DNA of 64,000 bases from Candidatus Krumholzibacteriota bacterium (GTDB lineage Bacteria; Krumholzibacteriota; Krumholzibacteriia; JAJRXK01). Every line of letters begins with the position of its first letter. Position 1 is the stretch's first letter. The notes beneath the pieces are model-generated. The model was given only the letters and a program-made list of their open reading frames with translations, had not been told where the DNA came from and ran no database searches. Both the position numbers and the translations under genes were made by a program. Shown here one piece after another: positions 1,188 to 63,999 of this stretch. Where the stretch lies: NCBI GenBank assembly GCA_963764625.1, contig CAVXTH010000004.1, positions 12,895 through 76,894 on the forward strand, written 5' to 3'.

Positions 1188-1389
1188 TGTCCCCACCATA
1201 AAGTCCATCCGCATTGCCTAATTTCGATCCCGCCGTTCCGTGATTTTGGAGTATGTCGCGCTGCGCCATCAGCTACATGTCCTCGGCCGCCACGAACAAC
1301 GCCCCGTGGTCGGAGGGCTCCATCACCGCTACTCTCGAAAGGCCGCGTAGCCGTGGATTCGATGCCGGATCGAATTAATGGAAGGGACA
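1188..1389 (+). mobile_element. MITE-like internally deleted integrase/transposase element, copy A
   Basis: Imperfect terminal inverted repeats CTGTCCCCACCATAAAGTCCATCCG / CGGATCGAATTAATGGAAGGGACAG (20/25); interior reads FRSRRSVILEYVALRHQLHVLGR joined to PVVGGLHHRYSRKAA*. Confidence 0.75.
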
Positions 1390-1469
1390 GAGGGGAACAC
1401 TTGTGACTCTGAATTGACACCGTGACGCGAGCTAATGCACTCTCTCTGAACTGACCGGAGGGAGTCGAC

Positions 1470-1736
1470 ATGAGAGTTTTTCTCAGCGTATTCGCGGCTG
1501 TGTTCATCGCTGAACTGGGCGACAAGACCCAGCTGGCCACCATGCTCTTCGCGGCCGACAAGAGTGTGAACAAGTTCGTCGTTTTTCTCGGTGCCTCCTT
1601 GGCACTCGTTCTCGCGTCGGCTATCGGAGTACTCGCGGGCGGAGTTCTCTCGAACTACGTGAGCGAACGGCACTTACATCTGGTCGCAGGACTGGGCTTC
1701 ATTGGCATCGGTCTCTGGATGCTCGTGCGGGCGTGA
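1470..1736 (+). CDS. TMEM165/GDT1 (UPF0016) family Mn2+/Ca2+ transporter, single-repeat form
   Basis: AELGDKTQ signature, 3 TM segments, GGAG RBS. Confidence 0.9.
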   Translation: MRVFLSVFAAVFIAELGDKTQLATMLFAADKSVNKFVVFLGASLALVLASAIGVLAGGVLSNYVSERHLHLVAGLGFIGIGLWMLVRA

Positions 1737-1994
1737 TAGGGGCTGTATTGGTCCACCGAATTCAATGCTCACTTTCTCGCTCAGAATCACCAGCGGGCGC
1801 GAACTTATCAACGAAGGTACTTGAGACATTCCACGGAGAGTAACGAAAGGGCTCATCTGAAATGTGGCGAAATCGCGTGGCGGCGTCTCAGAGTCTCGGT
1901 GTCTCTGCATCGGAACGGGAAAAACTTAACGCGCCCAGGATATTATGGGGTCACGCGCAGGCCGCCTTCGCATAGATGGTCACGATTGGCTCCG

Positions 1995-3050
1995 TCAGAA
2001 ACTGTAGCCAGCCGCCCCGGATGACCGCGTGGTGTCTGCCTCCATGCGCGCCCGCCGCAGCCGTCTCCATGCGCTCGGCGACACGCCGACCATCCGCTTG
2101 AACGCCCTCGAGAACGCTGCCTCGTTCTTGTAGCCTACGTCGAATGCGATCTCGATTACTTTCGCATCAGTATCACGCAGCCGCACGGAGGCCAGTTGCA
2201 TCCTCCATTGGGTCAAGTATTGCATCGGGGGTTGCCCGATAAAGTGAACGAAATGCTCGTGCAGCGTCGAGCGCGAAACTGCCGCCTCCTCGCCCAGTCG
2301 CTGGACTGTCCATGGTTCTGCGGGTCGATCGTGCATGAGCGCAAGTACGCGCCCGATGGCCTCGTCACGGAGTCCCGCCAGCCAGCTCGGCTGGCCCTGT
2401 GGCAGTGCATCTGCGTATCGGCGCACCACTTCTACAAAGAGCATTTCGCTCATACGCTCGAGGACGGCCTCTCCGCCCGGTCGTTTGCGGCTCGACTCCT
2501 CGACCACAGATCGCAGGAAGTTCGCAACCCACGAGCTGGAATCGGTGGCGATTCCCGGCATGCGCAACACTCTTGGCATCGACGCGAGAAGTGGGTTGAA
2601 GGGCCTCGCGTCGCAGCCCAAAAAGCCGCAGACCACGGTCGTCTTCTGGCCACCACCCCCATCGAGCTGAGCAACGGCAGCGCTTTCACCGGAAACATTG
2701 AGGCAGTATGGCAATTGTGGAGGGCGAGGCGCGAACTGTAGCCCGGCATCCTGGATGGTCGCCCGCAATCCCGGTGCGCTCGACATGACGTGGGCATCGC
2801 CGTGTGGAAACAGTACGACGTCGCCCTCATGCAGACGAATCGGCTCGCCGCCAATGATTGTCGCCCAACACGATCCGCTGGCGATCCCGTGGAACTCCAT
2901 CATGTGCTCGACGCCGGGCATGATTCGGGGAATGAGGTCCCGCGAATGGGAGGTTTCGACGACCCAGGGGTCGGATCCCTTGATGTAAAAGAAGAACGCG
3001 CCTCGCAGCCGAACAGCACGTAGTAAGTCGGAAAGAATATCGCGGCTCAC
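1995..3050 (-). CDS. AraC family transcriptional regulator with cupin N-terminal domain
   Basis: DILSDLLRAVRLRG start; C-terminal YLTQWRMQLA...VGYKNEAAFSRAFKR; GAGGAG RBS before GTG at 3050. Confidence 0.92.
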   Translation of the reverse strand: MSRDILSDLLRAVRLRGAFFFYIKGSDPWVVETSHSRDLIPRIMPGVEHMMEFHGIASGSCWATIIGGEPIRLHEGDVVLFPHGDAHVMSSAPGLRATIQDAGLQFAPRPPQLPYCLNVSGESAAVAQLDGGGGQKTTVVCGFLGCDARPFNPLLASMPRVLRMPGIATDSSSWVANFLRSVVEESSRKRPGGEAVLERMSEMLFVEVVRRYADALPQGQPSWLAGLRDEAIGRVLALMHDRPAEPWTVQRLGEEAAVSRSTLHEHFVHFIGQPPMQYLTQWRMQLASVRLRDTDAKVIEIAFDVGYKNEAAFSRAFKRMVGVSPSAWRRLRRARMEADTTRSSGAAGYSF

Positions 3051-3266
3051 GTGCTCCTCACATGTCCGTCCCGACCGTTGGGGGATCACTTCCGGACGAA
3101 CAGCACAATTCTACCGACACTAGGCAGTGTGTCAAGCCAACCACTTGCGGCATCTTAGGTTTGGCGCGAAGGGGAGTGACCTGATTCGCCCTAGTGGTGA
3201 GGGAATGGGCGTCCCCTCACGCGGTGTGTGTCGAACAGCAGACGCCAAACCAGGAGGATTGGAGAA

Positions 3267-3692
3267 ATGGGTCAATCGAAAATTGAGCATCGGGCACGAC
3301 TCGGGTCCGGTTCTCGAAAGAACACGAAACGGTGGGCTTCTTCTCTCTTTCTGGCCGGGGTGATCGCTGCGCTGGTGGCGTGCGGAAGCGATTACGGTGG
3401 CGGCTACACGACTGCGCCTACCTCTGGAGGCAAGGAGCTCGACTCCGGCAATATCAGCCCGGGAGCCACCTACCAGCATCGCTTCGCAAGCGCAGGTTCG
3501 TTTCCCTACCACTGTATTTATCACGCTCCGATGACCGGAACCGTCGAGGTATCGACTGGTGCGGCCGACACGCTCGTAAACGTCAGTATCACAAGCAGCT
3601 CTGCCCCATTCCCGGCGGCCTCTGTCAAACCGGGCGGGAGGGTGGTCTGGACCAACAACACGAGCGTGGTGCACACCGTCACCAGCGACTGA
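3267..3692 (+). CDS. Cupredoxin (plastocyanin/amicyanin-like) lipoprotein, circularly permuted
   Basis: LVAC lipobox; YHCIYHAPM ligand loop precedes VVWTNN...HTVTSD. Confidence 0.8.
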   Translation: MGQSKIEHRARLGSGSRKNTKRWASSLFLAGVIAALVACGSDYGGGYTTAPTSGGKELDSGNISPGATYQHRFASAGSFPYHCIYHAPMTGTVEVSTGAADTLVNVSITSSSAPFPAASVKPGGRVVWTNNTSVVHTVTSD

Positions 3693-3694
3693 GC

Positions 3695-3805
3695 TGTCCT
3701 TACCACTAAGTCCATGCGGCGACCGAGAACCCGCAGCTGATGGCAAAGGGCGATGTTCTCCAAGATGAGCGAACGGCCGCATCGATGGAGTTTTTGGTAG
3801 GGACA
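3695..3805 (-). mobile_element. MITE-like element, copy B
   Basis: Ends CTGTCCTTACCACTAAGTCCAT and ATGGAGTTTTTGGTAGGGACAG; minus-strand interior RSLILENIALCHQLRVLGRR. Confidence 0.75.
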
Positions 3806-3847
3806 GCTCGGGCGAGTCTTGTGGATCCTATAGATGAAAGGAATCGC

Positions 3848-9396: not shown

Positions 9397-10034
9397 TGTA
9401 GGATAGTCAGACTCTCCGAGACACATCAGCTGTTAGATCAACGCACACTGAAAGAGGTCTCGATATGAATCAGGAGGTGCTGGATGTCCTGCGAGCTCGG
9501 CGTCGGCGAACGATTCTCGAGTTAGCCGAGACCGTAGGGAACACAGTTGAGGGGTGGGAAGGGCTGCTTCGCAAGAGGCCCGTGGCGCGCAGTCACCCAA
9601 GGCAGATTTTTCCGGAGTTTGTGGAGAAGATCCTCCATTTGAGAGCCAACTACCACCTGGAACCCCAGAGAATCGCCTGGTATCTCGAGCGTTCCCATGG
9701 CTTCGTGACCTCCTGTTCGAGTGTCTATCGCACGCTCAAGCTTAAACGACTACTGACATGTGGAAGACAAGGCCATGCGGCATGTGTATATCAAGCCGCG
9801 GTCGCCACAGTTGAATGGCAGGGTTGAGAGGTCACATCGGACCGACCAGGAGGAGTTCTACCAGCTCTTGACGTACACGGATGATGTGGATCTGAACGCA
9901 AAGCTGAGGGAGTGGGAGAGGTTTTACAACCTCAGCCGGCCGTATGGAGCGCACAACGGAAAGACGCCTTACGAAGCTCTGAAACGTCTGCTAGAATAAC
10001 TGCCAATCTGTCCCGAAGGGTCCGGAACATCACA
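9397..10034 (+). mobile_element. IS481-family element remnant, internally deleted
   Basis: TGT...ACA ends with imperfect IR (inner 12/16); HTH fragment (QRIAWYLER...SSVYRTLK) joined to integrase C-terminus (HVYIKPRSPQLNGRVERSHRTD...YNLSRPYGAHNGKTP); central DDE part absent. Confidence 0.85.
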
Positions 10035-11648: not shown

Positions 11649-12887
11649 TCAGGGCAAGGCCACGGAGTGGTCGCGGCTGAATTGATAGTCACGGAAGACG
11701 TGTTCGGCGCTCAGAATTCGATAGCTTCCGTCCGGCTGGCGCGTCGTGGTGTCCTTGAGACGATACACGTAATGTCCGCAGGTAAAGCAGTTGTTCCGGC
11801 TGAAGTGGTAGCAGAGACAGACCTTCTCGTGCACGGGCCCATGGCGTCCACTCGCATCCGGGGCCGTCTTCCGATACTCGTCGAGATACGAGCAGTGGCC
11901 TTCTCCGTCGAGTAAGTACCCGAACCCTTCGCACATGGGTTTCACGTTCGAATCCAGGCAGGGACTGTTCCGCAGCATGCGGATGAGATATCCGGTGGGT
12001 GAAGTCGTCGAGACGACGACATCTTCCTCGGAGGCGCTAAAATAGCGTTGTTGCACCTCGGGTCCGAGTCCGCACTCTTTCGTCACGGTGAAGCGGGTGG
12101 CGACCTGCACTGCTCCCGCACCCGCCTCAAGGGCCTCGACAGCATCGGTGCCCGTGAAGATCCCTCCGGCGGGAATCACGGGAATGGAAAGTCCCTGCTT
12201 CTTCAGGAAATCCAGGACCTCGGCGGTGATCACCTTCAGAGAGAACCGTTTCCAATCGGCGCCGAATCCCAGATGCCCTCCGGCGAGCGGACCCTCCACC
12301 ACGACGTAGTCCGGTAGACGGGACAGTTGCTTGGCGCGCCGCAGGAAAATTTGCAGCGCGCGCGTGCTCGACACCACGATACCGAGCAGGGCGTCGTGAA
12401 AGCGCGGATGGTCGGCGATGTGTTGCAGACTGCTCGTGTGCAAACCGGCGGAGAGTGTGATGCCGTCGATCCCGCCGTCGAGCGCCGCGCGGAGTCGTGC
12501 GCGCAGGGTCCCCGCGGGGTCAGCCATGGTGAGCTTCTCCATCACGTTGATGAAGATCGCCCCCGTGCCCGTCTTCTTTTCCATGGTGCTGCGCACGTGA
12601 TTCAGCTGCGCCTGCCGGATCGACTGGAGATCGAAGTGGATGCCGGACTTGTCACTGCGAGCGCGCCAAGCCCGATGCAGAGCACGCTTGCCCTGGGTGA
12701 AGCGGGTCTTGAAATTCCGGTCCGAGACGAAGGCGATCATGGCGTCGGAGATGTGTCCGACTCCTCCGAGCCGACTGGCCTCTTGCGCAAGACCCTCGGT
12801 GGAGATGTCCACTCCCATGCCGCCGATGACGATCGGCACGAGTTCGAAGCTCCCCAGTCGCAAACGAAAATCATCGACGATGGGCAC
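11649..12887 (-). CDS. Nitronate monooxygenase/FabK-like flavoenzyme with Cys-rich C-terminus
   Basis: PIVIGGMGVDIS, ITLSAGL, VVEGPLAGGHLG, PVIPAGGI, AVQVATRF motifs. Confidence 0.9.
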   Translation of the reverse strand: MPIVDDFRLRLGSFELVPIVIGGMGVDISTEGLAQEASRLGGVGHISDAMIAFVSDRNFKTRFTQGKRALHRAWRARSDKSGIHFDLQSIRQAQLNHVRSTMEKKTGTGAIFINVMEKLTMADPAGTLRARLRAALDGGIDGITLSAGLHTSSLQHIADHPRFHDALLGIVVSSTRALQIFLRRAKQLSRLPDYVVVEGPLAGGHLGFGADWKRFSLKVITAEVLDFLKKQGLSIPVIPAGGIFTGTDAVEALEAGAGAVQVATRFTVTKECGLGPEVQQRYFSASEEDVVVSTTSPTGYLIRMLRNSPCLDSNVKPMCEGFGYLLDGEGHCSYLDEYRKTAPDASGRHGPVHEKVCLCYHFSRNNCFTCGHYVYRLKDTTTRQPDGSYRILSAEHVFRDYQFSRDHSVALP

Positions 12888-13073
12888 AGCTTACTCCTCA
12901 GTGTCTCCGCTCACGCGAAGACTAACTCGATGTAGAGAGAATCGCTAGCGGATGGGACGCGGCGGACAGGTCTTTGTCAATGACAGATCCACCGGACCGA
13001 TCGGGGCGATCTCGGGGCCTTTCGTGGGTTCCACTTCGCCAGCCTCTTCGTCAGTCTAGTCACGTGCACAACC

Positions 13074-13179
13074 CATGCCTACCACATATTCCATTCGGGC
13101 TCAAATTCACGCCTGAGCGGCCTTTCGGTAGTATCGGTGGTGCAGCCCGGCAACGTGGATCTAATGAATGGTAGGGACA
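13074..13179 (-). mobile_element. MITE-like element, copy C
   Basis: Minus strand: CTGTCCCTACCATTCATTAGATCC end, interior AGLHHRYYRKAA, degenerate far end. Confidence 0.7.
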
Positions 13180-13197
13180 GCTGAGGCATATGCTAAA

Positions 13198-14652
13198 ATG
13201 ACCGCAATTTTGTCCCATGGGGTCCGGGATATCACAGTCTTCAAGTATTTCGGTCAACTGTGCCTCGCGCTCGGCGCACTGACGCTGGTGCCGTTCGCAA
13301 TGTCGCTGATCTTCGGCGAGTGGCACATCGCCCTGAGATATACCGTTGTGGTTTGTGGGCTAATCGGCTTGGGCTTGGGGACGGTCCGGCTGCGGGCTCC
13401 TTTCCGTGTGCAGGCCAATGAGGGCCTGGTGTTGGTCGCGCTGGTGTTTTTCTTCACTCCGCTGGTGTTGTCCTACCCGATGATGGGTGCGGGGTTGAAG
13501 TTTCTGGATGCCTTCTTCGAAGCTGTTTCCGCCGTGACGACCACGGGGTTGAGCACTAAGGCGACGCTCGTTGGCGCGCCGTCGACGTTTCTTTTTGCCC
13601 GCGCCTGGATGCAGTGGTACGGAGGGCTGGGCATCGTCGTCCTCTCGCTGGCGCTCGTAATGCAACCGGGGCTGGTGGCGAAAGGCCTGACTGCCTCAGA
13701 GATCGAAACCGGGGATTAGGGCGGTAGCGCGCGGGCACACGCGCAGCGAGTCCTGAAAGTCTATGGCGTTATCACCGCTCTGGGCATCATTGGCTCCCTA
13801 ATGCTGGGAGTCGGCCTTTTCGACGCGGTATTGTACACATTCACGGCGGTATCGACCGCAGGTTTTGCACCCCATGACAATAGCCTTGCAGCCTTAGGCT
13901 TGCTCCAACAGTGGTGGATTACGCTGCTTTGCCTCGCCGGTGCGATCCCACTGGCGTTCTATCACCGAATGTTAAAGGAGAGACGGCGCGTTGCAGTGGA
14001 CTTTCTTCAACTCCAGGCCGTGGTAATCGCTTGCCTGGTCGTTTCGCTAGCGGTGGGCGCTTCCATGCGGCTGAGTGCCGGCATGACTTGGCCACAAGTA
14101 CTCCATCACGCCCCCTTGCTGTCTCTCTCGGCGCAGACAACTACGGGTTTTGCCTCGACGCCGTGTGCGCAACTCGATGCGGGTTCCAAGCTGGTTCTGA
14201 TCGTCTCGATGCTCGTGGGAGGCGGAGTGGGATCGACCGCAGGCGGATTTAAGCTGCTGCGGCTGTTGATTGCAGTGAGCGTGTTTCGATGGATAATCCT
14301 GCGGACCTGCTTGCCGAAGCACGTTGTCACCGAACCTCGGCTGGCAGGCCGCCGACTGCAGAACGAAGAGATCTACGCGACCCTGCTGCTCATCGTACTG
14401 TTTGTCGTCGTCGTCACGCTGTCCTGGCTGCCCTTTGTGGCAATGGGATACGGCCCGCTCGACTCGTTGTTCGAAGTGGTTTCGGCGGTGGCAACGGCGG
14501 GGCTTTCGGTCGGGCTGTCGAGTGAAACATTACCCGCGCTGCTCAAGGGAGTTCTATGCGCTGACATGCTGATGGGAAGACTCGAAATCATCGCATGGTT
14601 AGTGCTGCTGTATCCAGGAACGTGGTTTGGCAGGAGAATGGAGGGAACATGA
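13198..14652 (+). CDS. trkH: TrkH potassium uptake membrane protein (in-frame TAG at 13717-13719)
   Basis: FEAVSAVTTTGLS, QWYGGLG, STAGF, GSTAGGFK, MGRLE motifs; the two ORF halves are in the same frame. Confidence 0.88.
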
Positions 14653-15335
14653 GAGTTGTTCTTATCGGAGCCGGAAGAGTGAGCGTCGAAACGGCCAAGG
14701 CGCTCATTAAAAAGGGCCATGAGGTCATCATCATCGAAACCGTCAAGGCCAAGATCGATGAATTATCCGAAGAGATGGATTGCAGCTTTCTGCTGGGCGA
14801 TGGCAGTCATCCTAGCCTCCTGTGCGAAGTCAATCCCGCGCAGACCGATTTCCTGTTTTGCTTGGCGGACAGCGACCAGGATAACATCATCGCCAGTCTC
14901 GTCGGCCGTTCCCTCGGTTTCAAGCGTATCGTGACGAGCATAGGCGATCCGCAGTTCGAGGATATCTGCCATGTGTTGGAGCTGGAGGACACGATCATCC
15001 GCTCTCGCACCATCAGCCGCTACCTCGAAGACATGGTGGGCGGCAGCAAAGACACCGAAATTTCTGCGGTCATCAAAGACGAGGCCCGGTTTTTCACTTT
15101 AATTGCAAAAGAGGAAGATACGGTCGCGGCAAAGGATCTGAAATTGCCTACCGATGCCAAGGTCATCTGCTATTACCGCGATGGCGAGTTTTCACATGCT
15201 GATAAAGAAACGAAATTCCGCATAGGCGACGAGGTTGTGATTCTCACACACAGCAAAAATATACCCGCGTTGCAGGAGCGTTGGCAGCCGAAGACCGCGC
15301 AGGAGGAGCCGGCGGATGCGGGCTCGCCGGGTTGA
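14649..15335 (+). CDS. trkA: TrkA potassium uptake NAD-binding subunit
   Basis: MRVVLIGAGRV Rossmann motif, GDGS, DQDNI; ATGA overlap with trkH. Confidence 0.9.
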   Translation: MRVVLIGAGRVSVETAKALIKKGHEVIIIETVKAKIDELSEEMDCSFLLGDGSHPSLLCEVNPAQTDFLFCLADSDQDNIIASLVGRSLGFKRIVTSIGDPQFEDICHVLELEDTIIRSRTISRYLEDMVGGSKDTEISAVIKDEARFFTLIAKEEDTVAAKDLKLPTDAKVICYYRDGEFSHADKETKFRIGDEVVILTHSKNIPALQERWQPKTAQEEPADAGSPG

Positions 15336-15471
15336 TTGCAACTGTCGACAACGACGACGCACAATCATTCTGAGGTCTCCTCCATCATTCTGAGTTATCC
15401 AGGGGTTGCTACCTGCAGCCCCACCCAGTCTAAAGCCTTACGTTACAATCGATTACTTGTAGCCACACCGG

Positions 15472-15485
15472 GGCATTCCGCTTGC
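15472..15485 (+). promoter_or_regulatory. Possible sigma-54 -24/-12 promoter
   Basis: GGCATTCCGCTTGC (GG-N10-GC), about 60 nt before the PRC-barrel gene. Confidence 0.4.
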
Positions 15486-15543
15486 CTATCCCTCTAGCAG
15501 GTCTGGGATCGTTCGAAACTCGAAAAAAAGGAATACACCCACC

Positions 15544-15906
15544 ATGGTAACCACAAGGAAGCCGCAGGAGAAGTTCGGCGTTGTTTCTGCGACGACGATC
15601 AAGGGCGAGTCGGTCATCAATCACGAAAAAGAGAAGTTGGGCAAGATCGATGAGCTGATGATCGACGCAAATACGGGGCATCTGGCTTATGCGGTGCTCT
15701 CCTTCAGCGGTAATCACTACGCCGTACCCTGGAGCGCGTTCGAGTTCGCCAACACCGAGAAAGTACTCATCCTCGATGTGGACAAGGAGAAGCTCAAGGC
15801 CGCTCCCGGGTTCGACAAGAGTGAAACCTGGCCGGATTTTGCGGACCGAACCTGGGGTGGCAAAATCCACAAATACTACGGTTCCGCACCGTACTGGGGA
15901 GAGTAG
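15544..15906 (+). CDS. PRC-barrel domain protein
   Basis: SATTIKGESVIN...LGKIDELMID..G.LAYAVLSF...VPWSAF...LK.APGFD..WPD. Confidence 0.92.
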   Translation: MVTTRKPQEKFGVVSATTIKGESVINHEKEKLGKIDELMIDANTGHLAYAVLSFSGNHYAVPWSAFEFANTEKVLILDVDKEKLKAAPGFDKSETWPDFADRTWGGKIHKYYGSAPYWGE

Positions 15907-15972
15907 AGACGGATTCGATGCTCGTTGATTCCGACGACGTCGACTGGTTGGGCATTTACAAGGAGGCACCCC

Positions 15973-17731: not shown

Positions 17732-17768
17732 GAAACCAGGCTAGACCAGGTCCGAGTCGAGGGCAAGC

Positions 17769-17854
17769 TGGGCCCACCGCCACACCGAATCCACGGCTAC
17801 CCGGCCTCTCGATAGTAGCGGTGGTGAAACCGCGGGGCCGCAATGGCGCGCGAA
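17769..17854 (-). mobile_element. MITE-like element, copy E (degenerate)
   Basis: Minus strand GFHHRYYREAG*; shares blocks ATCCACGGCTACCC, CGATAGTAGCGGTGGTG and AATGGCGCGCGAA with copy F. Confidence 0.65.
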
Positions 17855-17897
17855 GTGAACAGATTCGGCGCTGCCAGTGCTACTCCTTCCATTTCGC

Positions 17898-19553: not shown

Positions 19554-19592
19554 TGGATTAGCTCGCTCTTCCGAAGTGGGTTACGATTAGGC

Positions 19593-19716
19593 TGTGCCAA
19601 CCCCTTCTTCCATTTGTTGTCGTATCCACGGCTACCCGACGTCCCGATAGTAGCGGTGGTGCGGCGCGCCGACCATAGGATGTTTGCGGACCGGCGGGAT
19701 CGAAATGGCGCGCGAA
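19593..19716 (-). mobile_element. MITE-like element, copy F
   Basis: Minus strand FRSRRS...PMVGAPHHRYYRDVG* then GGTTGGCACAG end. Confidence 0.65.
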
Positions 19717-19919
19717 ATAGGTTTAAATTGAGATTGAGCATCCATGAAACCTATCAGGTCGAACGCTGTAAGTTCAAGTCAGGCAACGCGGATCCAATAA
19801 ATCGGAGGGTCAGGACCAATACCCCGAGAATTGGCCTTTGAGGACTGCGTAACGCAATCCACATTTAGGATGGGGATGTTACATGAAACCGCAAGCCAGC
19901 TTGTCCATGTGAGGAGAAC

Positions 19920-21209: not shown

Positions 21210-21235
21210 CAGCGCTGCAGTAGTCGGAGTGAGGA

Positions 21236-22990: not shown

Positions 22991-23043
22991 AGCCGGGACA
23001 AGAACTTCACGCCGGAAGCCCGAGCGTCAGGAGGAGATAGACG

Positions 23044-27777: not shown

Positions 27778-28101
27778 GAGCTTCCTCCCTTTTACGGCAA
27801 AATATCGCATGCTACTTGTCTCTTTGAAACCAGTGGTCCAACAGGACCTCAACCAGCGGGCGAATTTTCAGGCAGTAGCGAAACGTCACCGCGCCAAGAA
27901 CTCTTTGTCAGTGGAAACAGAATTTTATCTGTCGTTTGACGGTTCCTGGTCATCGACGGCCGCATTCATGATGTCTTCGCCACACAACCCAATAGCCACT
28001 ATCGTGCCCGAGCTAAGCGCTTACGAGCGCGTAGCTTAGATGGCGCAGCAGTTTGAATTGCCCATCATAATGAGGCGGAGTTGATCAAAACGAAGGAGGA
28101 A

Positions 28102-28136
28102 GCCCAGCAACGTGGATCTAATGAATGGTTGGGACA
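28102..28136 (-). mobile_element. MITE-like element end, copy D
   Basis: GCCCAGCAACGTGGATCTAATGAATGGTTGGGACAG is 34/36 identical to 13145-13180. Confidence 0.7.
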
Positions 28137-28187
28137 GGATGATAATGGTGCCTGTCAAAGTCGTGATAGGAAGTTGCGCGTTCCGCG

Positions 28188-46757: not shown

Positions 46758-46770
46758 GTGGAGTGACGGC

Positions 46771-46894
46771 TGTTCCTACCATGGGGCGCTGCTCGTAACA
46801 AGCCGAGGGCCTGAAGCTGATGACGGATTGCAATGTTCTCCAAAAATCGGTCTCGGGATCTAAAGAGAGCGACTACGTTCCTTGGGCAGGGACA
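46771..46894 (-). mobile_element. MITE-like element, copy G
   Basis: Ends CTGTTCCTACCAT / GGCAGGGACA; minus-strand interior VALFRSRDRFLENIAIRHQLQAL. Confidence 0.7.
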
Positions 46895-46940
46895 ACCCCG
46901 ATCCTGGTCCCACGGGTTCCGCCATTCGCAAACGAAATGC

Positions 46941-47261: not shown

Positions 47262-50081
47262 ATGAAATACTACGAACGCTCGAAGCTCGTGCGCAGCGTC
47301 CTCATCGTGCTGGGATGCACGGCATTGCTGGCATCGGGCCGTCGTCGGCCCATGCCGACTCCGGGAGATCTCGACCCCTCGTTCGGGGGCTTCAGCTACG
47401 ACGGCGTGGCGACCCAGTACGGCTATCCGATGGATGGCGGGGAACGCGGCATGGCGATCCAGCCGGACGGCAAGATCGTCATGGCTGGATACACCTCGCT
47501 GGGAATCCTCGTCATGCGCTATCTTCCAGACGGCACTCCCGATCCTACGTTCGGCGGTGGGGAGGGCGCGGTGGCCCTCCTACATCCGAGCGTGGTGACC
47601 AGGGCGACGGACGTAGCGATCCAGGCCGATGGGAGGATCGTCGTGGCCGGATGGGCCGACACGGGACCGGCCGACTATATGCTGGCCCGTCTCACCCCGA
47701 GCGGCTATCTCGATCCCTCGTTCGGCTCGGGCGGCTGGGTCCTCACCGACTTCTCGGACGACACCGATCAGGCGTACAGCGTCGTCATCCAGAGCGACGG
47801 CAAGATCATCGCCGCCGGCCGCTCGCTCATCGGCAATGACTACGATTTCTCCGCCGCCCGTTACAACCCGAACGGAACTCTGGACATGAGTTTCGGCGGT
47901 GACGGGCTCGTCACGGTCGGGTTCGGCAAGCTCGGACCCGACAACAACGAAGCCTGCTACGACATCGCTCTCGACAGCAGCGGTCGGCTAGTGATGGTCG
48001 GCGGCGGCACCGATGTCTGGACGACGGGCACGTTCGATATCGCCCGCCTGACGACGAGCGGCTCGTTGGATGTCACGTTCAACACGATCGGCAGGAAGCA
48101 CTGGGACGTCGGACCGGACAACACGCAGGCGTCGGCCGTCGCCATCGCGCCGGACGGCAAGATCGTCGTCGCAGGGTCGCAGGTTTACTTCAATTCGTCG
48201 CAGAGCGGCGAAGCCTATGCCGCTCGCTTCCTTCCGAACGGTGACTTCGACAACTCGTTCGACGACGACGGCAAGCTCAAGGTCTCGGACAACTACTTCA
48301 TCAGGGACGTCGTCGTGCAACCTGACGGCAGAATCTTACTGCTGGGCGACGCCGCGTTCTCGGCGAGTCAGTGCTCTGCGCTGTTCATGCGCCTCGCGCT
48401 GGACGGATCGCGCGATCCGACGTTCAGTGACAACGGCACGTACTACTCCGCAGAGAGCGGCTACTGCAAGGGCTATGACCTCGCCCTTTTGCCCGACGGC
48501 CGCCTGCTTGCCTACGGCGCGAAGGACCAGAACCATCTGCTCGTTCAGCTCTGGCCCGACGGCACGCTCGATGTGGCCGGCAAGCAGGCGATCGGCTTTG
48601 ATACGCCCGGATTCGGAGCCGGCACGTACTCGATCGGCTACGGCATGGCCATTCAACCGGACGAGAAGATCATCGTCGCGGGAACCGTCTATGGCCCTGC
48701 GGGGGACGCCGATTTCGGTCTGGCGCGCGTCTTTTCAACCGGGAGGATTGACGACACCTTCGGCACCTACGGACGCGCCACGTTTGCATTCGACGAGGAC
48801 GACCTCGGTACCTGCGTCGCCTTGCAAAGCGACGGCAAGATCATCATGGCCGGCGACACCCAAAACGGTTCGGATCGCGACTTCATGGTCGTGCGCTTCA
48901 ACCCCGACGGCAGCGTCGACGGATCGTTCGGATTTCTCGGCTTCTCTGTACTCGACTTCCTGGGCGGAGACGACTACGGCCGCGCGATTGCCATCGCGCC
49001 GGACGGGAAGATCGTCGTCGTCGGAACGGTTTTCAACGGCGCCCGCAACGTCTTTGGGGTGGCTCGCTTCAACAGCAACGGCACGCCCGACACCTCCTTC
49101 GACATCGATGGCAAGCAACTGGTCGAATTCGCAGTCGGACCGACCCATTGGGCGTCCAGCGTCGCCGTCCTTCCCGACAACCGGATCCTCGTCGGCGGCA
49201 GCGTCGGCGGCGACTTCGCTCTGGCACGCTTAAACGTGGACGGCAGCCTCGATACAACCTTCGGCAGCGCGTTCGGCGGATCTGGTAGGCGCACCTATGA
49301 TTTCGGCGGCAATGACTACTTGAACGCACTCAAGCTGAGTTCGGGCGGCGCGATCTATGCGGCCGGCAGCAGTGAGATCGCTGGTCACACCGTCTTCGCG
49401 ATGCTGCAGTTGCCCTCGCACGGCGGGCCGCCGACCTGCTTCCCCACTCCCTGCCCTTGGCCGAGTGGACAGGCGACCGTCGACTGGGGCGCGAGCGTGA
49501 ATGGCGCAGCCTATGCGATCGACCTGAGTGACGATGGCCAGGTGTTGGTGGGCGGAATCGCGGGCGGAAAGATGGCGTGGGCCCAGGTTCCCGCATCGTC
49601 GACGCCGATGCCGATCCTGGGCATGGCCGATTTCCCGGGCGCCAGTGACACCGCCACCGGCATCAGCTTCACCAGCTTGGGCAAACTCGTCGCGTCTGGC
49701 TACTACGATCAGAACGGAGTCAAAGCCCTGGCGCTGGCGAGCTTCGAGACGACCTTTAACGCGGTTAGCGTCCCTGACGATGGCACGACTCGGGCCTCGA
49801 CGCAGGTGCGCTTCCTCTCCGCCTACCCCAATCCCGCGTCGGGTCGAACCCTGTTCGACTTCGAGCTCCCGAGCTCCGGCACCACGCGCGTCTCGGTCTA
49901 CGATCTGGCCGGTCGACGCGTTCGGGTGCTTGCCAACGAGCCTCTCGCCGCCGGGAGACACGAGCTGGCATGGGACACGAACGACAGCCACGGGCGACCG
50001 GTGGCGGCGGGGATCTACCTGGCGCGCGTGGAGTTCGGGACCTTCCACGCGCAGAAGAAGATCATCGTATTCAGTCGCTGA
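47262..50081 (+). CDS. Delta-60 repeat (DUF5122-like) beta-propeller protein with FlgD/T9SS-like CTD
   Basis: More than 10 repeats of AIQPDGKIVVAG...ARY.PDG.LD.SFG; C-terminal AYPNP...YDLAGRRVR...WD...GRPVAAGIY. Confidence 0.93.
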   Translation: MKYYERSKLVRSVLIVLGCTALLASGRRRPMPTPGDLDPSFGGFSYDGVATQYGYPMDGGERGMAIQPDGKIVMAGYTSLGILVMRYLPDGTPDPTFGGGEGAVALLHPSVVTRATDVAIQADGRIVVAGWADTGPADYMLARLTPSGYLDPSFGSGGWVLTDFSDDTDQAYSVVIQSDGKIIAAGRSLIGNDYDFSAARYNPNGTLDMSFGGDGLVTVGFGKLGPDNNEACYDIALDSSGRLVMVGGGTDVWTTGTFDIARLTTSGSLDVTFNTIGRKHWDVGPDNTQASAVAIAPDGKIVVAGSQVYFNSSQSGEAYAARFLPNGDFDNSFDDDGKLKVSDNYFIRDVVVQPDGRILLLGDAAFSASQCSALFMRLALDGSRDPTFSDNGTYYSAESGYCKGYDLALLPDGRLLAYGAKDQNHLLVQLWPDGTLDVAGKQAIGFDTPGFGAGTYSIGYGMAIQPDEKIIVAGTVYGPAGDADFGLARVFSTGRIDDTFGTYGRATFAFDEDDLGTCVALQSDGKIIMAGDTQNGSDRDFMVVRFNPDGSVDGSFGFLGFSVLDFLGGDDYGRAIAIAPDGKIVVVGTVFNGARNVFGVARFNSNGTPDTSFDIDGKQLVEFAVGPTHWASSVAVLPDNRILVGGSVGGDFALARLNVDGSLDTTFGSAFGGSGRRTYDFGGNDYLNALKLSSGGAIYAAGSSEIAGHTVFAMLQLPSHGGPPTCFPTPCPWPSGQATVDWGASVNGAAYAIDLSDDGQVLVGGIAGGKMAWAQVPASSTPMPILGMADFPGASDTATGISFTSLGKLVASGYYDQNGVKALALASFETTFNAVSVPDDGTTRASTQVRFLSAYPNPASGRTLFDFELPSSGTTRVSVYDLAGRRVRVLANEPLAAGRHELAWDTNDSHGRPVAAGIYLARVEFGTFHAQKKIIVFSR

Positions 50082-58718: not shown

Positions 58719-59120
58719 GGGGGTTTCTCCCTTCGGAAAATCGACCCGGCGGAGGGGGAAAGTCCGGGTTGGGGCGCTTCTGGAGAAAGGTCGCGCGAGC
58801 CGCCCGAGTGTGACACGAATTCCCGTGCGGAACGGGGGACGTCCGGCTCGAGGGCGCCGGATGGGAGGTTCCATATATAGTATCGGTGATGGAGACTACG
58901 GGACCCTAAGCTCAGGTAAGACGAGACTTATGGAGTCTCTGGTAGGCTCAACATGCCACTGGGCGCATACTTCGTACGGCTTGATCCATGGGAGTTCACG
59001 GCTTCGAGGAGTTCCATTTTGCAGTGTTCGCAGGCGTTGAGTTTGGAAGATCCAAATCTGAATTATCCCTGCCCAGAAGTTTGGAAGGCCGACTCCTCGT
59101 GTCAGTACGCTGCCGGTAGG

Positions 59121-60494
59121 GTGGCGCAGTGGTGGCGCCATCCGGGATCGGTGGTGTTCAGTCTCTTGATCCTGTCTTCTCTTCTCGACTCCGACTCTCG
59201 CGCGCACGTCGACGTCACCGACTCGACTGCGTCGACCATTTCGGTCGTACCCGAGGTCACTGGGGACGAGTTCGACTACGTCTTCTTCGCCGATAGCCCA
59301 ACGCCGACCTACTACGACCCGAGTTGGAGCTTCGTCACCGCGCCGAGCACGCTCGTGCAGGACGGGGCGAAGCTTCCGGTAAGCTCCACCCGGTCGCTGG
59401 TCGGCAAGTACTCACTCTCGCTCGATTGGAACTCGCAGCCCGACGGGGATTGGGGCGCGGCGGTGGCCAGCATTGGCTGGGTCGGTCACGACCTAACGCA
59501 GGCGGACAGCCTCGTTTTCAACGTCTACACCGATCAGCTCACGGCGAAGGCCGATCTGCCGTGCATCTACCTCGAAGATCTCTCGAGCGCTCGGTCGCCG
59601 AAAATCCTGCTGTCGACTCTCACAGGCGACGTTCCGGCTGGGACATGGCACCGCGTGGCGTTGCCCGTGCAGACCTTCCTCGACGCTCCCGGCTCGACCG
59701 ACATGACGCGGGTGAAGACGATCTTCTTCGGCCAGCAGACCGCCGACGGCGTCCGGCACCGCTGGCTCCTTGACGACATGCGCATGACTGGCGTCAAAGC
59801 GGTCACTGGAGAGGACGTGCCGCTGATCGTCGTGCTCGGTTCGTCGACCGCTGCCGGTACGGGTGCTTCGCTGCCCGACAGCTCGTGGGTAGGACGCTTC
59901 CGTAACTACATCCAGAACATCAACCCAGATGCACAGGTGGTGAACCTCGCGGTCGGTGGATACACAAGCTACCAGATCCGTGAAGATGGATACGCGCCGC
60001 CACCGGGACGGCCCGCGCCGAGCCCGGAGCACAACATCACCCGCGCGCTCGCCTACAGACCATGGGGCATCATCGTGAACCTGCCCAGTAACGACGTGGC
60101 CTCGAACTACGCGCTTCAGGAGAGTCTGGACAACTACGGCGCCGTAGAGGCGCTGGCCGAGGCCGCCAACGTGCCGATTTGGTTCAGTACGGCCCAACCG
60201 CGCAATTTCGCGACCCAGACACAACGCGACGTTTTGTTGGCGCAGACCGATTCGACGTTCACGCGCTTCGGCAACTACGCGATCGATTTCTGGAACGATA
60301 TCGCGGCGGCGAATGGTACGATTCTTCCCCAGTACAACTCAGGCGACGGTATCCACCTCAACAACGGCGGACATGCTGTGCTCTACTCCCGGGTCGTGGG
60401 CGCAGCCGTTTGGGACCGGGTCATTACCCCAGTCGATTCCGGCGAGTACCACGGCTCGGTGGGCCCTGTCCCTATCACTAACTCCACCCGGTGA
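59121..60494 (+). CDS. SGNH/GDSL hydrolase with N-terminal carbohydrate-binding-like domain (start uncertain; 3' end runs into element H)
   Basis: VVLGSSTAAG, NLAVGGYT, LPSND, GDGIHLN blocks. Confidence 0.85.
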   Translation: MAQWWRHPGSVVFSLLILSSLLDSDSRAHVDVTDSTASTISVVPEVTGDEFDYVFFADSPTPTYYDPSWSFVTAPSTLVQDGAKLPVSSTRSLVGKYSLSLDWNSQPDGDWGAAVASIGWVGHDLTQADSLVFNVYTDQLTAKADLPCIYLEDLSSARSPKILLSTLTGDVPAGTWHRVALPVQTFLDAPGSTDMTRVKTIFFGQQTADGVRHRWLLDDMRMTGVKAVTGEDVPLIVVLGSSTAAGTGASLPDSSWVGRFRNYIQNINPDAQVVNLAVGGYTSYQIREDGYAPPPGRPAPSPEHNITRALAYRPWGIIVNLPSNDVASNYALQESLDNYGAVEALAEAANVPIWFSTAQPRNFATQTQRDVLLAQTDSTFTRFGNYAIDFWNDIAAANGTILPQYNSGDGIHLNNGGHAVLYSRVVGAAVWDRVITPVDSGEYHGSVGPVPITNSTR

Positions 60495-60550
60495 CAAATC
60501 CGCGGTAAGGCTGCCTCCGTATAGTACCGGTGGTGCAATCCTCCATTGAG
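60467..60550 (-). mobile_element. MITE-like element, copy H
   Basis: Minus strand NGGLHHRYYTEAA then GGAGTTAGTGATAGGGACAG end. Confidence 0.7.
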
Positions 60551-60740
60551 AAGACGAGGCCACCTCATGAGGCGGCCTCGAAGAATGGCTCCCCGTTCGT
60601 GACTCTCAACGAAAGGCTCTATGTTCGGGGGGCGACGAGACGACTCTGACGATTGCAGATCTTCAGCTCTCCTGGTGAATTTCCTTTGTGTGTGCAACCC
60701 GCTGTTCGTGTAGTAGCATCCCCTCTTTCAGGAGTATCTC

Positions 60741-63073
60741 GTGATCGGCAAGACCTTGGGCCACTATGAAGTCATCGGCTTGCTCGGCAAAGGCGGCATG
60801 GGCGAGGTCTATCGTGCGCGCGACTCGCGTCTTGGACGCGAGGTCGCTATCAAGGCTCTTCCCCCGGAGTTCTCCGCGGATCCCGAACGCCTCGCGCGGT
60901 TCGAACGCTAGGCGCGACTTCTCGCTTCTCTTTCCCATCCGAATATCGCGGGAATCTACGGGCTCGAGACCTTCGCTAACATCCCCTATCTAGCGCTCGA
61001 ATTCGTCGAAGGAGAAACCCTCGCCGACCGACTGGCGCGCGGTCCCCTATCGCTCGACGAAGTGATGGACGTGGCCGGGCAGATCGCGGCGGGTGTCGAA
61101 GCCGCCCACGAGTCTAGTCGCGGGGATCTTGCAGACCGAGCCAGACTGGAGCCGGTTGCCGGCGGCGACACCCGCGCGCGTCCGTACGATGCTCAAGCGC
61201 TGCTTTCAAAAGGATGTCAGGCAGAGGCTGCGCGACATCGGCGAGGCACGCATCACTCTTGGGGCAGCCATGGACGCGGAAGACGAGCCCGCGACTCGGT
61301 CAAGGGTCCGGGGCATCTCCTGGTGGACGGCAACCCCAGCAGTACTCGTGGTGGCGATCCTGGCGGTTCTCGCCACCCTTCGGTTTGGGCAGGGTTCGGC
61401 GTCCGGTCCCCTACGTAAGTTGGACCTGGTCGCGAAGGACGTGGTTGTCGATTGGCCCATTGCCCCACAACTTTCGCCCGACGGCTCGCGGTTCGCCTAC
61501 GCCTCGGCGAATCGGGTCTGGGTCCGCGATCTGGACCGACTCGAGCCCCGCGCCGTGGCGGACATCTCGGCCGCCAGCCCTGTTAGCTGGTCGCCGGATT
61601 CGCGCGAGCTCGTCTTCAGTGACAACAGGAAGCTGTGGAAAGTCGCGGTCGAGGGTGGACGCGCAACAGCGATCTGCGAGATCCCGAGAACGGGGAGCAT
61701 CATCGCGGCAGCCTGGAGCAGCTCCGGCAAGATCGCCTTTTCGGTCTGGCGGGACCAGATTTACGAAGTCCCCGCTAACGGTGGTACCCCCGCCGTCATG
61801 GTCGCACTCGACCCCCTCACCGAGATCGACTTTCACGCCCTGTCCTGGTTGCGAAACGGCGAACTCCTTTTCGTCACTCACTGGAAGAGCACGCGCGATA
61901 GCACGGGACATGTGGTACCCGCCCTCACCTTCTTCGACGGCAAGAAGCTGACCCGGGTTCCCGGGGATTTTGGAAGCCCTGACGACGCACCTCTCCTGAC
62001 CGCGACCGGTCAATTGCTGTATCTGACGCGCGGGGCGACACCGGGCATTTGGGCTGTTCCCTTCGATCTGGAGCAACATCAGGCGGCCGAGGCGCCGGTT
62101 CTGGTAGCGCCCGATGCCGTCACTCTGAGCGCTTCGGCAGACGGTTCGTTGCTCTATTCGGAAGGGTTGAAGGTCAGTGTGCAGCGAGAACTGGTCTGGC
62201 GAAACCGGTCGGGTGAAGACCTCGGCGCGGTGGGCTCGCCACACAGGAACCTCGGCCAGCCGCGGCTGTCCCCTGATGGTAGCCGCGTCGCGTTCAGTGC
62301 CGCCGACGGCGACAACGAGGATGTATGGGTTCTGGATCTGAAGACCGGTACCGAGACGCGGCTCACCTTCGGCCCGCAAGTGGAATCCTCGCCGGAGTGG
62401 ATGGCCTCGTCGTTGCGCCTGTCGTACGTCGAGGACAACGGCATGCAAGCCCGCGTCTTTTCGATCAATGCCGACGGGTCCGGCGAACAACGTGAATTTG
62501 CGCCGCTGATGTACTTTGGTATGCAGTCCGGCGGGGTGACCATGGCGCCGGACGGCCGGTGATCTCGTCGATCAGCGAGGGCACGGAAGCCTGCAGGTCG
62601 GACCGGTGCTGCCCGGCGGCAAGCTCGGTCCCCTGAAGCCCCTGCTGAAGCAGGTCCCGGAGCCGAACGCACGCGCGGGAAGAATCTCGCCGGACGGTCA
62701 ACTCGTCGCGTACACGACGAACGATCCGGGGCAAGTCGACGTCTTCCTGGCCCGGTTCCCCAGTGGCGAGGGGCAATGGCAGGTCGGCACCCAGGGCGGG
62801 ATGCGGCCCCGCTGGACTCGGGACAGCGGCGAGCTGATCTTCATTGCCGGCAGCGGCCCGACGGAACGCAGCATGGTCTCGGCTCGAGTGGACCCCTCAC
62901 TGGATTCGCCGCTCGGAAAACTCACCTTGCTGTTCAGCAGCCGAGGGGACGGCGACCTGCGGATTTCGACGTCGCTCCCGACGGACGACGATACCCGACT
63001 ACCCGAGCGGACGGCGGCGTCGATGGATCGGCTCGACACCTGGTCCTGGTGGAAAACTCGCGGTCGGAACTAG
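60741..63073 (+). pseudogene. Ser/Thr kinase with PD40/TolB-like repeats, catalytic core deleted
   Basis: [25 protein letters not shown]...FER*ARLL...AAHE jumps near 61113 to GILQTEPDW; HRD/DFG/APE absent; SPDG repeats follow. Confidence 0.85.
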
Positions 63074-63204
63074 CGAGATAGCTCAGTCCAGCAACGCCCG
63101 ACCATGATGGCCGGGCGCTCTGTGGAGGCGGACCCTCAAGCTCATGGGAGCCCGAGCGGTGTTGGCTCCCGGTTTTTCAGCTTGGACGCAGTTCTCAACA
63201 GCAA

Positions 63205-63775
63205 TCATCGATACATCCCCTTCACGCCCCCCCAAGATCGGGCCTGGTAATCCACCGTCCCCGCGCAGGCGGCATGGACGTTGTCGATGCTCGCACCCCA
63301 GGAGTTGTCACCGGGATCGATCACCAGAACGATTCGAGGGTATGTTGCCCGCAGGGGGCGACGAAGGTTCGGTGGTCCAGTTCGGCTGGGAATGATCAAC
63401 CAGACGGATTCGAATCCGTCGATGGTCACCGCGATCCTGGCCGTGCCAGGCTCACTCAGGAGAAGTCGAAGAGTTGGTGCTGGAAGATGATCGTGCACTC
63501 GGTCCCGCCGCGGGATCTCCGCACAGGGAGGACTGTGGACAGGCGGGCAGTACCACCGCCGTTCCGGAAAGCAAGGCGTAGGAACCAGGATCACCGCCAA
63601 TGGTCGGAAAGATGACGGCGAGAAGGTTGAGGGATCCACGCTAGTCGACCAACCGGTGGCGCCGTAGTCGAAGCTGCCGTTGATGACATCGGCGGAAGCC
63701 GTCTCCCCATGAGGATCACGGACAGGACAACGGGGAGAACCCGGTCCCGCACGGAGAGTCGGAGCGGATATCCAT
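63205..63775 (-). CDS. Small secreted protein with C-terminal SWGGVKGMYR motif (frameshifted)
   Basis: AGGAGG RBS; hydrophobic leader; VINGSFDYG..GW start; ends SIDNV...DYQARSWGGVKGMYR. Confidence 0.55.
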
Positions 63776-63900
63776 GACAGCCTCCTGAAGAAGAAGTGGA
63801 CGGGAATGATGAAGTCGCTCCCCACAAGTGCGATTTCCACGCAGGAGGACTAAATCATAGGAGTATCCGATCTATTCTTTCAAGGGGCTGACCTGCTCCC

Positions 63901-63999
63901 TGTATCCCTTCTATTGATCCCATGCGGCCGGCAATCCGCGCTTAGGCCGCCTCTCGATAGTAGCAGTGGTGTAGCCCGCCGACCATCGGACGCCGCCTG
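63901..63999 (-). mobile_element. MITE-like element or integrase 3' end, copy I (may continue beyond the window)
   Basis: Minus strand RPMVGGLHHCYYREAA* then GGGATCAATAGAAGGGATACAG end. Confidence 0.7.

Follow-up and report, generated by a model that had tools for sequence, protein, structure and literature searches.

Short co-oriented repeats in a Krumholzibacteriota accessory region as probable debris of a single insertion sequence

Nine short elements with similar ends and scraps of a transposase-like peptide lie scattered among unrelated gene modules in a 64-kb stretch of DNA from a Candidatus Krumholzibacteriota genome (hereafter the window, which denotes the whole stretch analysed), and they raise the question of whether the region was assembled module by module through a new cassette-like system or carries the remnants of an ordinary mobile element. 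An initial annotation of the DNA had proposed either a new MITE family or recombination sites loosely resembling integron attC arrays. All nine elements were present at or near the coordinates previously given (Table 1), with the correction that copy E runs to 19813 rather than 19716; copy F is an IRL-side fragment only.

Table 1. Coordinates of the short elements and relics in the window
Feature	Position	Strand	Description
Copy A	1187..1390	+	204-bp mini with both TIRs; TIR matches at 1187 and 1379; parent positions 109-177 and 1037-1130
Copy B	3694..3806	-	113-bp mini with both TIRs and two internal deletions; parent positions 2-25, 112-180 and 1104-1130
Second IS relic, not of this family	9402..9996	+	HTH_32 N-terminus and rve_3 C-terminus, core deleted
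Copy C	13073..13180	-	Degenerate IRR, C-terminal scrap, intact IRL; parent positions 1049-1124
Tenth relic	15342..15352	-	11-nt IRR stump, recognised by alignment with G003
Copy D	17768..17860	-	Degenerate ends, C-terminal scrap; 90% identical to E over 41 nt
Copy E	19592..19813	-	222-bp mini; parent positions 22-126 and 1042-1102
Copy F	28101..28137	-	37-nt IRL-side fragment with C-type junction; TIR match at 28126
Copy G	46770..46896	-	IRR, N-terminal scrap, degenerate IRL; TIR match at 46770; parent positions 135-174 and 1036-1053
Copy H	60466..60560	-	IRR and C-terminal scrap; parent positions 1051-1130
Copy I	63900..64000	-	IRR and C-terminal scrap, degenerate ends; cut by contig end

The 12-nt end motif, allowing up to two mismatches, occurs 10 times in the window compared to 3.0 ± 1.7 times in shuffled sequences, with 0 of 100 shuffles reaching 10. 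Eight of the 10 matches are element termini, and those at 3500 and 27248 look like chance occurrences; the ends of copies D and I are degenerate. Copy A joins the N- and C-terminal transposase scraps in one reading frame, as had been noted. A fused peptide conserved across the minis was ruled out, since only copy A is in frame; E, by a hand reading of its alignment, is out of frame. With regard to neighbouring genes, copy B begins 1-2 nt past the TGA of the ORF at 3228-3692, copy C lies directly upstream of trkH, and the tenth relic lies 6 nt past the trkA stop, where the related genome G003 carries a 78-nt mini at the same site. The placement of elements just after stop codons, described earlier as frequent, is evident for B; copy H does not follow a stop but provides one, its IRR forming the final 9 codons and the TGA stop of the GDSL-lipase ORF at 58953-60494, and the distance of 13 nt given for G depends on an unsupported frame of 50 codons (46605-46754). 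The window ends inside copy I, at the end of its contig (G000:C4:76894). A search of the window for tRNA and Rfam families returned none. The second IS relic in Table 1 showed no similarity to P0002, an intact transposase relative of the mini-element family, and no TIRs were found for it; it has decayed in the same manner as that family.

The search for a full-length parent recovered a single near-full copy in the same genome, a 1.13-kb IS at G000:C6:5017-6146 with both TIRs of ~26 nt and one reading frame interrupted by a single in-frame TAG. Every mini maps onto the two ends of this parent; the minis are derived from this IS, of which the genome holds a pseudogenised near-full copy. Programmed read-through of the TAG was ruled out, as five copies carry stops at different codons. 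Members of the family are 1.1-1.3 kb long and have ~26-nt terminal inverted repeats (CTGTCCCTACCAnnAAnTCCATC) that open with (C)TGT and close with ACA(G), and their rve DDE transposase (338-339 aa) is encoded by a single ORF. Open transposase frames are present in relatives, e.g., in G025, G010 and G015. No open (stop-free) frame of this family was detected in the assembly, which comprises 3.57 Mb in 9 contigs and is 96% complete, so that a gap could hide an intact copy.

Domain matches agree with the earlier assignment of the scraps to IS3/IS481-like rve/DDE transposases, whose elements have TGT...ACA ends. The parent pseudogene matches HTH_21, HTH_32, rve (E = 5.4e-6; its 27 bits fall short of the cut-off of 32.6) and rve_3 (22.2 bits), and P0002 carries PF00665 and PF13683 and aligns over nearly the whole of both the IS3 and IS481 NCBIfam models. 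The RNase-H-like DDE (rve) core of the IS3/IS481 superfamily is thus present, yet the intact relatives P0002 and P0024 score below the cut-offs of the IS3 model NF033516 (118.6 and 90.4 bits; cut-off, 160 bits) and of the IS481 model NF033577 (114.7 and 84.9 bits; equivalog cut-off, 224 bits). The IS3 family is marked by two ORFs joined via a -1 frameshift, a layout that the intact relatives, being single ORFs, do not match. These comparisons place the transposase between the IS3 and IS481 families. Intact relatives of 338-339 aa are plentiful, with 8000 of 8000 scored candidates at E ≤ 1e-3, and the best relatives in PLSDB (≤54% identity) are annotated merely as "integrase core domain-containing protein"; the IS family is widespread and has no name in the NCBI family models. 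Literature searches on IS481, MITEs and internal deletion, and on Krumholzibacteriota transposases, returned nothing on this element, which is not proof that it is unpublished.

We then took a census of the family by blastn with the nine copies and by nhmmer with a profile built from 14 full-length elements. Within the assembly, these searches placed family DNA in the window and at three further sites only (C6:5.0-6.1 kb, C2:83.7-83.9 kb and C9:475.9 kb). The window, 1.8% of the genome, holds 9 of the 12 copies (binomial P ~4e-14, hand calculation), and the copies are therefore not spread at random, the pattern with which the initial annotation had contrasted its proposal. Its statement that eight of the nine point the same way also proved correct: with the sole exception of A, the transposase sense lies on the minus strand, and inclusion of the trkA stump makes this 9 of 10. 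By hand calculation, the two-sided binomial probability is 0.039 for 8 of 9 and ~0.013 for the 12 of 14 obtained when pairs from relatives are added. These pairs come from the loci of full-length copies in relatives, where 5 of 6 have a second, older fragment within 20 kb; the older fragments are 73-91% identical to their neighbours (four alignable), and four of the five are co-oriented with them. With regard to a possible link between orientation and replication, GC skew on the transposase-sense strand has opposite signs in the two sets, positive at 3 of 4 loci in this genome and negative at 6 of 6 loci in relatives (near zero at one). The strong co-orientation is not predicted by pure debris and counts against that reading.

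Comparison of the deletion junctions revealed both common and private events. Copy E is collinear with the C2 mini for ~222 nt across one deletion junction (81% identity over 145 nt), and C and F have 37 nt across another junction in common at 95% identity, while the junctions of A, B, G, H and I are private to each copy. Because two junctions recur at different loci, some minis (E and the C2 mini, probably D, and C and F) would have been copied after deletion, either by MITE-like mobilisation in trans or by segmental duplication, the latter being a conceivable source of the C/F junction; copy D itself is probably a further-deleted E-type copy. The copies are also old. Mean identity of eight copies in this genome over the IRR-side 95 nt is 66%, compared to 90% over 90 nt for the ortholog pair of copy I in this genome and G003, and by hand estimate the 12-nt ends are kept no better than overall identity predicts. 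Since B, I and the relic at site A are common to G003, which is a different species, these copies are older than the species split.

Target-site duplications (TSDs) were looked for by eye in the flanks abutting minis A and B, the C2 mini and the parent, and also in the 14 full-length elements (13 from other genomes and the parent); none were seen, in agreement with the initial annotation. TSDs of 3-15 bp are typical of IS3/IS481-type families. Their absence is unexpected for transposition of this type, although old copies could have lost them. An empty-site comparison through the trkA loci showed L152 to be rearranged, with no simple insertion. The outside flanks of 61 termini revealed no target motif beyond position -1, which is C in 40 of 61 and G in 16 of 61 and is probably part of the element.

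Compared to its congeners, the window is a GC-mosaic accessory region that is largely absent from all four. GC content varies between 55 and 68.5% across 2-kb bins, the modules comprise several genes each and occupy both strands, and the interval from 20 to 60 kb has almost no nucleotide match in the four congeners. Of the four congeners, none has the NMO-like gene, one has trkH and two have the NmrA/DUF2867 gene (G003 at 69% identity over almost the full length, and G002 with a partial match at 45%), and the window GDH and ExbB are just 33-34% identical to their congener matches. None of the four congeners has the 1063-aa PPDK-like gene, yet across the phylum one is present in 142 of 208 genomes, the best being 59% identical. 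The only informative relative is G003, from a sister species; this MAG contains a pair of contigs that are almost duplicates (97.5% over 8 kb), so that some differences between the two genomes could stem from binning or strain mixtures. The copies are concentrated in this mosaic region, and synteny with G003 breaks at or inside them: homology past trkA covers the first 11 nt of the IRR and stops there, site A differs in its contents between the two genomes, and the edges of synteny blocks at 13237 and 60652 are 57 nt from C and about 90-100 nt from H, respectively. Some module boundaries and GC shifts carry no element, as between 28.1 and 46.8 kb and at the breakpoint at 6889, which counts against the debris reading. 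The G003 ortholog of copy B carries an additional 32-bp deletion, and that of copy I is a complete mini of ~214 bp, whose IRL likewise marks the exact end of its contig. The module between H and I is also found on G003 contig C5, ending at the orthologous copy I', and the nearest upstream element end in G003 (9857-9878) lies ~1.2 kb ahead of this block. No contig-end overlaps joining C4 to C6 or C2 were detected.

Do the elements then belong to a MITE family that is active now or was recently, mobilised in trans and favouring intergenic sites right after stop codons? The elements are of MITE form, with copies of 37-222 bp whose ends match the C6 parent and which contain only ORF scraps. Copies A, B and E retain both TIRs, as does the C2 mini, the junctions common to E and C2 (and D) and to C and F point to copying of a deleted form, identical ends are found on minis of 86-436 bp from other phyla (L042, L045, L047 and L064), and a distant family member in L107 lies 18 nt past another trkA stop, reminiscent of the positions of B (1-2 nt) and the trkA relic (6 nt). 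The MITE label is apt as far as these two junctions go; against it, most junctions are private, likeness among copies is only ~66%, no TSDs were seen, the assembly is devoid of an open transposase frame, the 61 flanks show no target motif beyond C/G at -1, and B, I and the site-A relic predate the split between species. We consider recent MITE activity highly improbable. The integron analogy, in which a site-specific recombinase would stack cassettes at attC-type sites, has in its favour a loose resemblance of short, co-oriented, palindrome-ended sites among modules. Contig C4 is devoid of a tyrosine recombinase, the six PF00589 matches of the genome all being on C6 and C2, and Pfam scans of 55 and 71 window frames gave no recombinase; as the sites consist of IS termini and scraps of transposase and the modules are multi-gene blocks on both strands, this analogy can for practical purposes be set aside.

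More weight, albeit still little, is due to IS-mediated module capture, by which foreign circles bearing this IS would have fused repeatedly into the region, either through homologous recombination with a resident copy or through a transposase-made cointegrate or IS-dimer junction, with later decay leaving stumps. Copies left at module boundaries by such a process would be co-oriented and have no TSDs, and directly oriented IS26 arrays among gene modules are described in two reports (PMC4196232 and PMC7885326). The co-orientation of 8 of 9 copies, or 9 of 10 with the trkA stump, single copies without TSDs, modules of mixed GC that are missing from congeners, the H-to-I module ending at I' in G003 and the several synteny breaks at elements are all consistent with capture. 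On the other hand, adjacent copies are 56-81% alike rather than the near-identical pairs expected of recent recombination or cointegration, the clearest breakpoint falls inside an element and not at its outer end, several GC shifts across 28-47 kb pass with no copy, and the transposase is an rve enzyme, not one of the IS6 family. Circles or junctions were not found: among public contigs aligned to window positions 12001-32000 in four runs, run X1 gave joints touching D and E (16236>19645, 19680>19766 and 17831>19763), all with sides <30 nt at 90% likeness, a kind often due to repeats or other organisms and not counted as evidence here. Capture is unlikely as the explanation of the whole, and it is a possible, unproven contributor. 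Little probability is also given to an unusual mode of movement of this rve IS, in which it would move without TSDs and re-insert, or fuse foreign circles, beside older copies in fixed orientation, building the island module by module; if true, IS26-like behaviour would have evolved independently in an IS3/IS481-type element, of which the window would be an old, eroded example.

Altogether, the results favour, with a probability of roughly 0.8, the view that the elements are internally deleted, non-autonomous derivatives and eroded stumps of one IS, left as debris in a long-lived plasticity zone. Under the debris reading, copies would have piled up because the stretch has long tolerated insertions, and new insertions of the IS family may tend to land close to older copies and in matching orientation. 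Later deletions would have whittled the copies down, some of them also taking out or replacing adjoining DNA, and the copies would now be inert because the assembly contains no open transposase gene.

As matters stand, the nine repeats are a familiar genome scar, ordinary mobile-element debris and not a new cassette system. They record an IS family, together with MITE-like derivatives, from a sediment phylum that is uncultured, and they mark an accessory region that is specific to the species and bears scars of this IS at its edges, which aids the reading of genome plasticity in these MAGs. For annotation, several of the window's predicted ORFs prove to be scraps of transposase, and an element supplies the end of one gene. 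Two features, the absence of TSDs and an oriented local clustering seen also at 5 of 6 loci in relatives, could justify a closer look at transposition in this family.

Among known systems, the parent element resembles IS481 and IS3 in its HTH N-terminus, rve core and rve_3 C-terminus, its TGT...ACA-type ends and its length of ~1.1-1.3 kb, and it resembles IS481 in having a single-ORF transposase; it differs from both in scoring below the two NCBIfam cut-offs and in showing no target duplications. Bacterial MITEs that arose from ISs by internal deletion, e.g., MITEAba12, have been reported (PMC6382973 and PMC11602168). The window family is like such MITEs in being short and mostly intergenic, with TIRs as in the autonomous IS, no transposase and some common junctions, and is unlike them in having no TSD, a very low copy number (11 minis or stumps), copies ~66% alike instead of a homogeneous burst, mostly private deletions and clustering in 64 kb. 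The IS26 arrays (IS6 family) cited above likewise consist of directly oriented copies among unrelated gene modules without individual TSDs; unlike them, the window family has an unrelated transposase, eroded and divergent copies, no resistance genes and no sign of targeted conservative cointegration. Integron attC arrays have just the spacing of short co-oriented sites among gene blocks in common with the window, whose contig has no IntI-type recombinase and whose sites are IS ends set among multi-gene blocks on both strands.

The nine short elements in the window (copies A to I) are minis and stumps derived from one IS family, a few of which were mobilised as MITEs, long ago. A parent was sought by six-frame motif search and blastn throughout the assembly (3.57 Mb, 9 contigs), and a 1130-bp element with the same ends as the window copies was located on contig C6. 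It contains a single frame encoding ~340 aa, broken by one TAG, whose protein matches HTH_21, HTH_32, rve, and rve_3, in agreement with the rve-type transposase origin that the initial annotation had proposed for the peptide scraps in the copies. The assembly yielded no family transposase frame that is open (stop-free). Intact 338-339-aa relatives are very abundant in metagenomes, with E<=1e-3 in 8000 of 8000 scored candidates. An intact relative scored 118.6 bits against the NCBIfam IS3 model (cut-off 160) and 114.7 bits against the IS481 model (cut-off 224), and thus sits between IS3 and IS481 on these scores; its best PLSDB matches are at most 54% identical and labelled only "integrase core domain-containing protein." The 22-nt end pattern was found at 62 loci in species-representative genomes of many phyla, with full-length elements spanning 1105-1331 bp. 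Five full-length copies (L005-L009, in G000, the source assembly, and in G033, G017, G032, and G005) carry one or two in-frame stops each, mostly TAG, and the different positions of these stops point to independent pseudogenisation across the class.

All nine elements are present in the window sequence, where the 12-nt end motif (up to 2 mismatches) has 10 matches, 8 of them element termini, compared to 3.0 ± 1.7 in shuffles, with 10 reached in 0 of 100. When aligned, the copies show two kinds of common material, an IRR-side (right-end) block with the C-terminal scrap GGLHHRY...AA* in reverse complement and an IRL-side (left-end) block encoding the N-terminal scrap FRSR..LEN.ALRHQL. Some details required revision: copy E reaches 19813, beyond the end first assigned to it; copy F is a 37-nt fragment; and the position of copy G 13 nt after a stop codon depends on a 50-codon frame without support. 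Copy H overlaps the 3' end of the ORF at 58953-60494, whose last nine codons and stop come from H.

Each mini, when mapped on the parent, retains some of the first 25-180 nt, some of the last 75-100 nt, or some of each, with deletion junctions that vary between copies (see table).

Family elements, retained parent positions, and other features (window coordinates unless a contig is named)
Feature	Location	Parent positions retained	Description
Parent	G000:C6:5017-6146		
C2 mini	C2:83706-83926		221-bp mini-element; blastn + nhmmer
Solo IRL	C9:475932		blastn + nhmmer
Copy A		109-177, 1037-1130	
Copy B		2-25, 112-180, 1104-1130	
Copy E		22-126, 1042-1102	
Copy G		135-174, 1036-1053	
Copies C, D, H, I		mostly IRR side	
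Stump 3' of trkA	15342-15352		
Second IS relic	9402-9996		HTH_32 N-terminal and rve_3 C-terminal scraps; catalytic core deleted
trkH	13168-14652		two frames, 183 and 283 aa
Kinase fragments	30361-31068; 60652-61415		truncated Ser/Thr-kinase N termini
DUF5122 gene	47262-50081		939-aa beta-propeller repeat protein, T9SS C-terminal sorting domain
C2 region	G000:C2:56000-97700		several tyrosine-recombinase fragments (PF00589) around C2 mini
Near-identical stretch 1	G000:C4:1-5338; G003:C14:13-5352		98.2% identical
Near-identical stretch 2	G000:C9:1-2097; G003:C34:1-2097		99.5% identical

Two junctions recur. Copy E is collinear with the C2 mini over ~222 nt, and copy D looks like an E-type copy that would have undergone further deletion; copies C and F have in common 37 nt spanning a second junction, at 95% identity. 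At least two deletion derivatives were therefore copied after arising, which is MITE behaviour. The proposal of a MITE family holds to this extent, while the other junctions differ and the remaining copies look like products of independent erosion. As the initial annotation had observed, target duplications are not evident: none adjoins the ends of A, B, the C2 mini, or the parent, nor those of 14 distinct full-length elements (13 from other genomes), whose flanks were inspected by eye. Outside 61 termini (L024-L084), the flanking sequence has no target motif apart from C or G at position -1 (C in 40/61, G in 16/61).

A genome census by blastn with the nine copies and by nhmmer with a profile from the 14 full-length elements placed family DNA in four places only, i.e., the window, the parent, the C2 mini, and the solo IRL, so that a stretch amounting to 1.8% of the genome holds 9 of 12 copies (binomial ~4e-14, a post hoc hand calculation). 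The 12-mer has 23 genome matches when up to 1 mismatch is allowed, 13 within family elements; the other 10 are unaccompanied, below the ~16 expected for random sequence (hand estimate). The region around the C2 mini probably represents a further island, at a contig end, rich in mobile elements.

The window copies cluster in an accessory region, probably a plasticity zone, and are probably inert now. The genes of this region are ordinary, functionally unrelated, and on both strands (AraC regulator, YceI, sigma factors, TrkH/TrkA, NmrA-like protein, nuclease-family protein, glutamate dehydrogenase [GDH], two PPDK-like proteins, ExbB/ExbD/TonB, T9SS-tailed surface proteins, and kinase), and GC in 2-kb bins ranges from 55 to 68.5%. 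Nucleotide matches of the 20-60 kb portion to four congeners are almost nil. At the protein level, the NMO-like gene is found in 0/4 congeners, trkH in 1/4, and the NmrA/DUF2867 gene in 2/4 (69% identity in the sister species G003, a 45% partial match in G002); GDH and ExbB have congener matches at 33-34% identity only, and paralogs just as distant sit on contig C9 of G000 itself. No congener (0/4) has the 1063-aa PPDK-like gene, yet 142 of 208 phylum genomes have one (best, 59% identical). These features mark the window as an accessory, mosaic region, in which neither a tRNA nor an Rfam match was found. It also holds a second, unrelated IS relic of the same N-plus-C-scrap anatomy, which does not resemble the transposase of the main family and for which a search gave no TIRs. 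The two kinase fragments have in common a 68-nt repeat (78% identity); one carries a scrap of the Pkinase profile (51-117), one continues into a PD40 ORF, and other parts of the genome carry many kinase paralogs. Internal 162-171-nt periodic repeats of the DUF5122 gene make up most direct-repeat families reported in the window.

End-pattern matches number 12 in G003, 1 in G001, and 0 in G002, G004, and G005. Blocks common to G000 and G003 are 83-90% identical, compared to the higher values of the two near-identical stretches, which suggest recent exchange, a mobile segment common to both species, or cross-binning. Block edges coincide with elements at several sites. The homology 3' of trkA enters the IRR for 11 nt and then ends, with a 78-nt mini retained in G003 and only the stump in G000. 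At site A, a solo IRR oriented like the majority of copies adjoins the left flank in G003; in G000 the site holds 91 bp, copy A (inverted), and 574 bp including a small GDT1-family ORF. The trkHA block begins 57 nt right of copy C and the 60652-64000 block about 90-100 nt right of copy H; they lie 6 kb apart in G003 and 45 kb apart in G000. Other breaks, e.g., at 6889, are without an element, and since two G003 contigs here are 97.5% identical, part of this picture may reflect strain mixtures. The G000 trkH, split here but one open frame of 494 aa in G003, has either become a pseudogene by frameshift or been misassembled.

Over the IRR-side 95 nt, eight G000 copies have a mean pairwise identity of 66%, whereas copy I is 90% identical to its G003 ortholog; B is likewise orthologous (87% column identity in an alignment that includes the flanks), with an additional 32-bp deletion in G003. 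Most insertions are thus much older than the divergence of the two species. By a hand estimate, ends show no visibly higher conservation than interiors, which fits neutral decay.

The initial annotation had also likened the elements to integron attC sites by which an island is assembled module by module. This analogy fails on every tested point: no tyrosine recombinase was found on the contig, and the elements are IS derived. Their co-orientation was upheld, with the transposase sense on the minus strand in eight of nine and copy A inverted, and GC skew, tested as its cause, gave no explanation. Among six relatives' loci with a full-length copy, five have a second, older fragment less than 20 kb away (73-91% identical to the neighbouring copy in four alignable loci), co-oriented in 4/5; together with the window, 12/14 are co-oriented (two-sided ~0.013, by hand; copies may not be independent). 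Family DNA occurs in three of 80 metagenomic trkA loci (497 kb), one having, 18 nt past the trkA stop, an inserted distant member in opposite orientation. Such co-orientation, the absent target duplications, and the mosaic modules are all consistent with a history of IS-mediated module capture in the manner of IS26, for which PMC4196232 and PMC7885326 describe arrays of directly oriented copies with gene modules between them. This explanation is weakened in that neighbouring copies are of low identity, one breakpoint falls inside an element rather than at its edge, and long stretches are free of copies, and we consider it unlikely.
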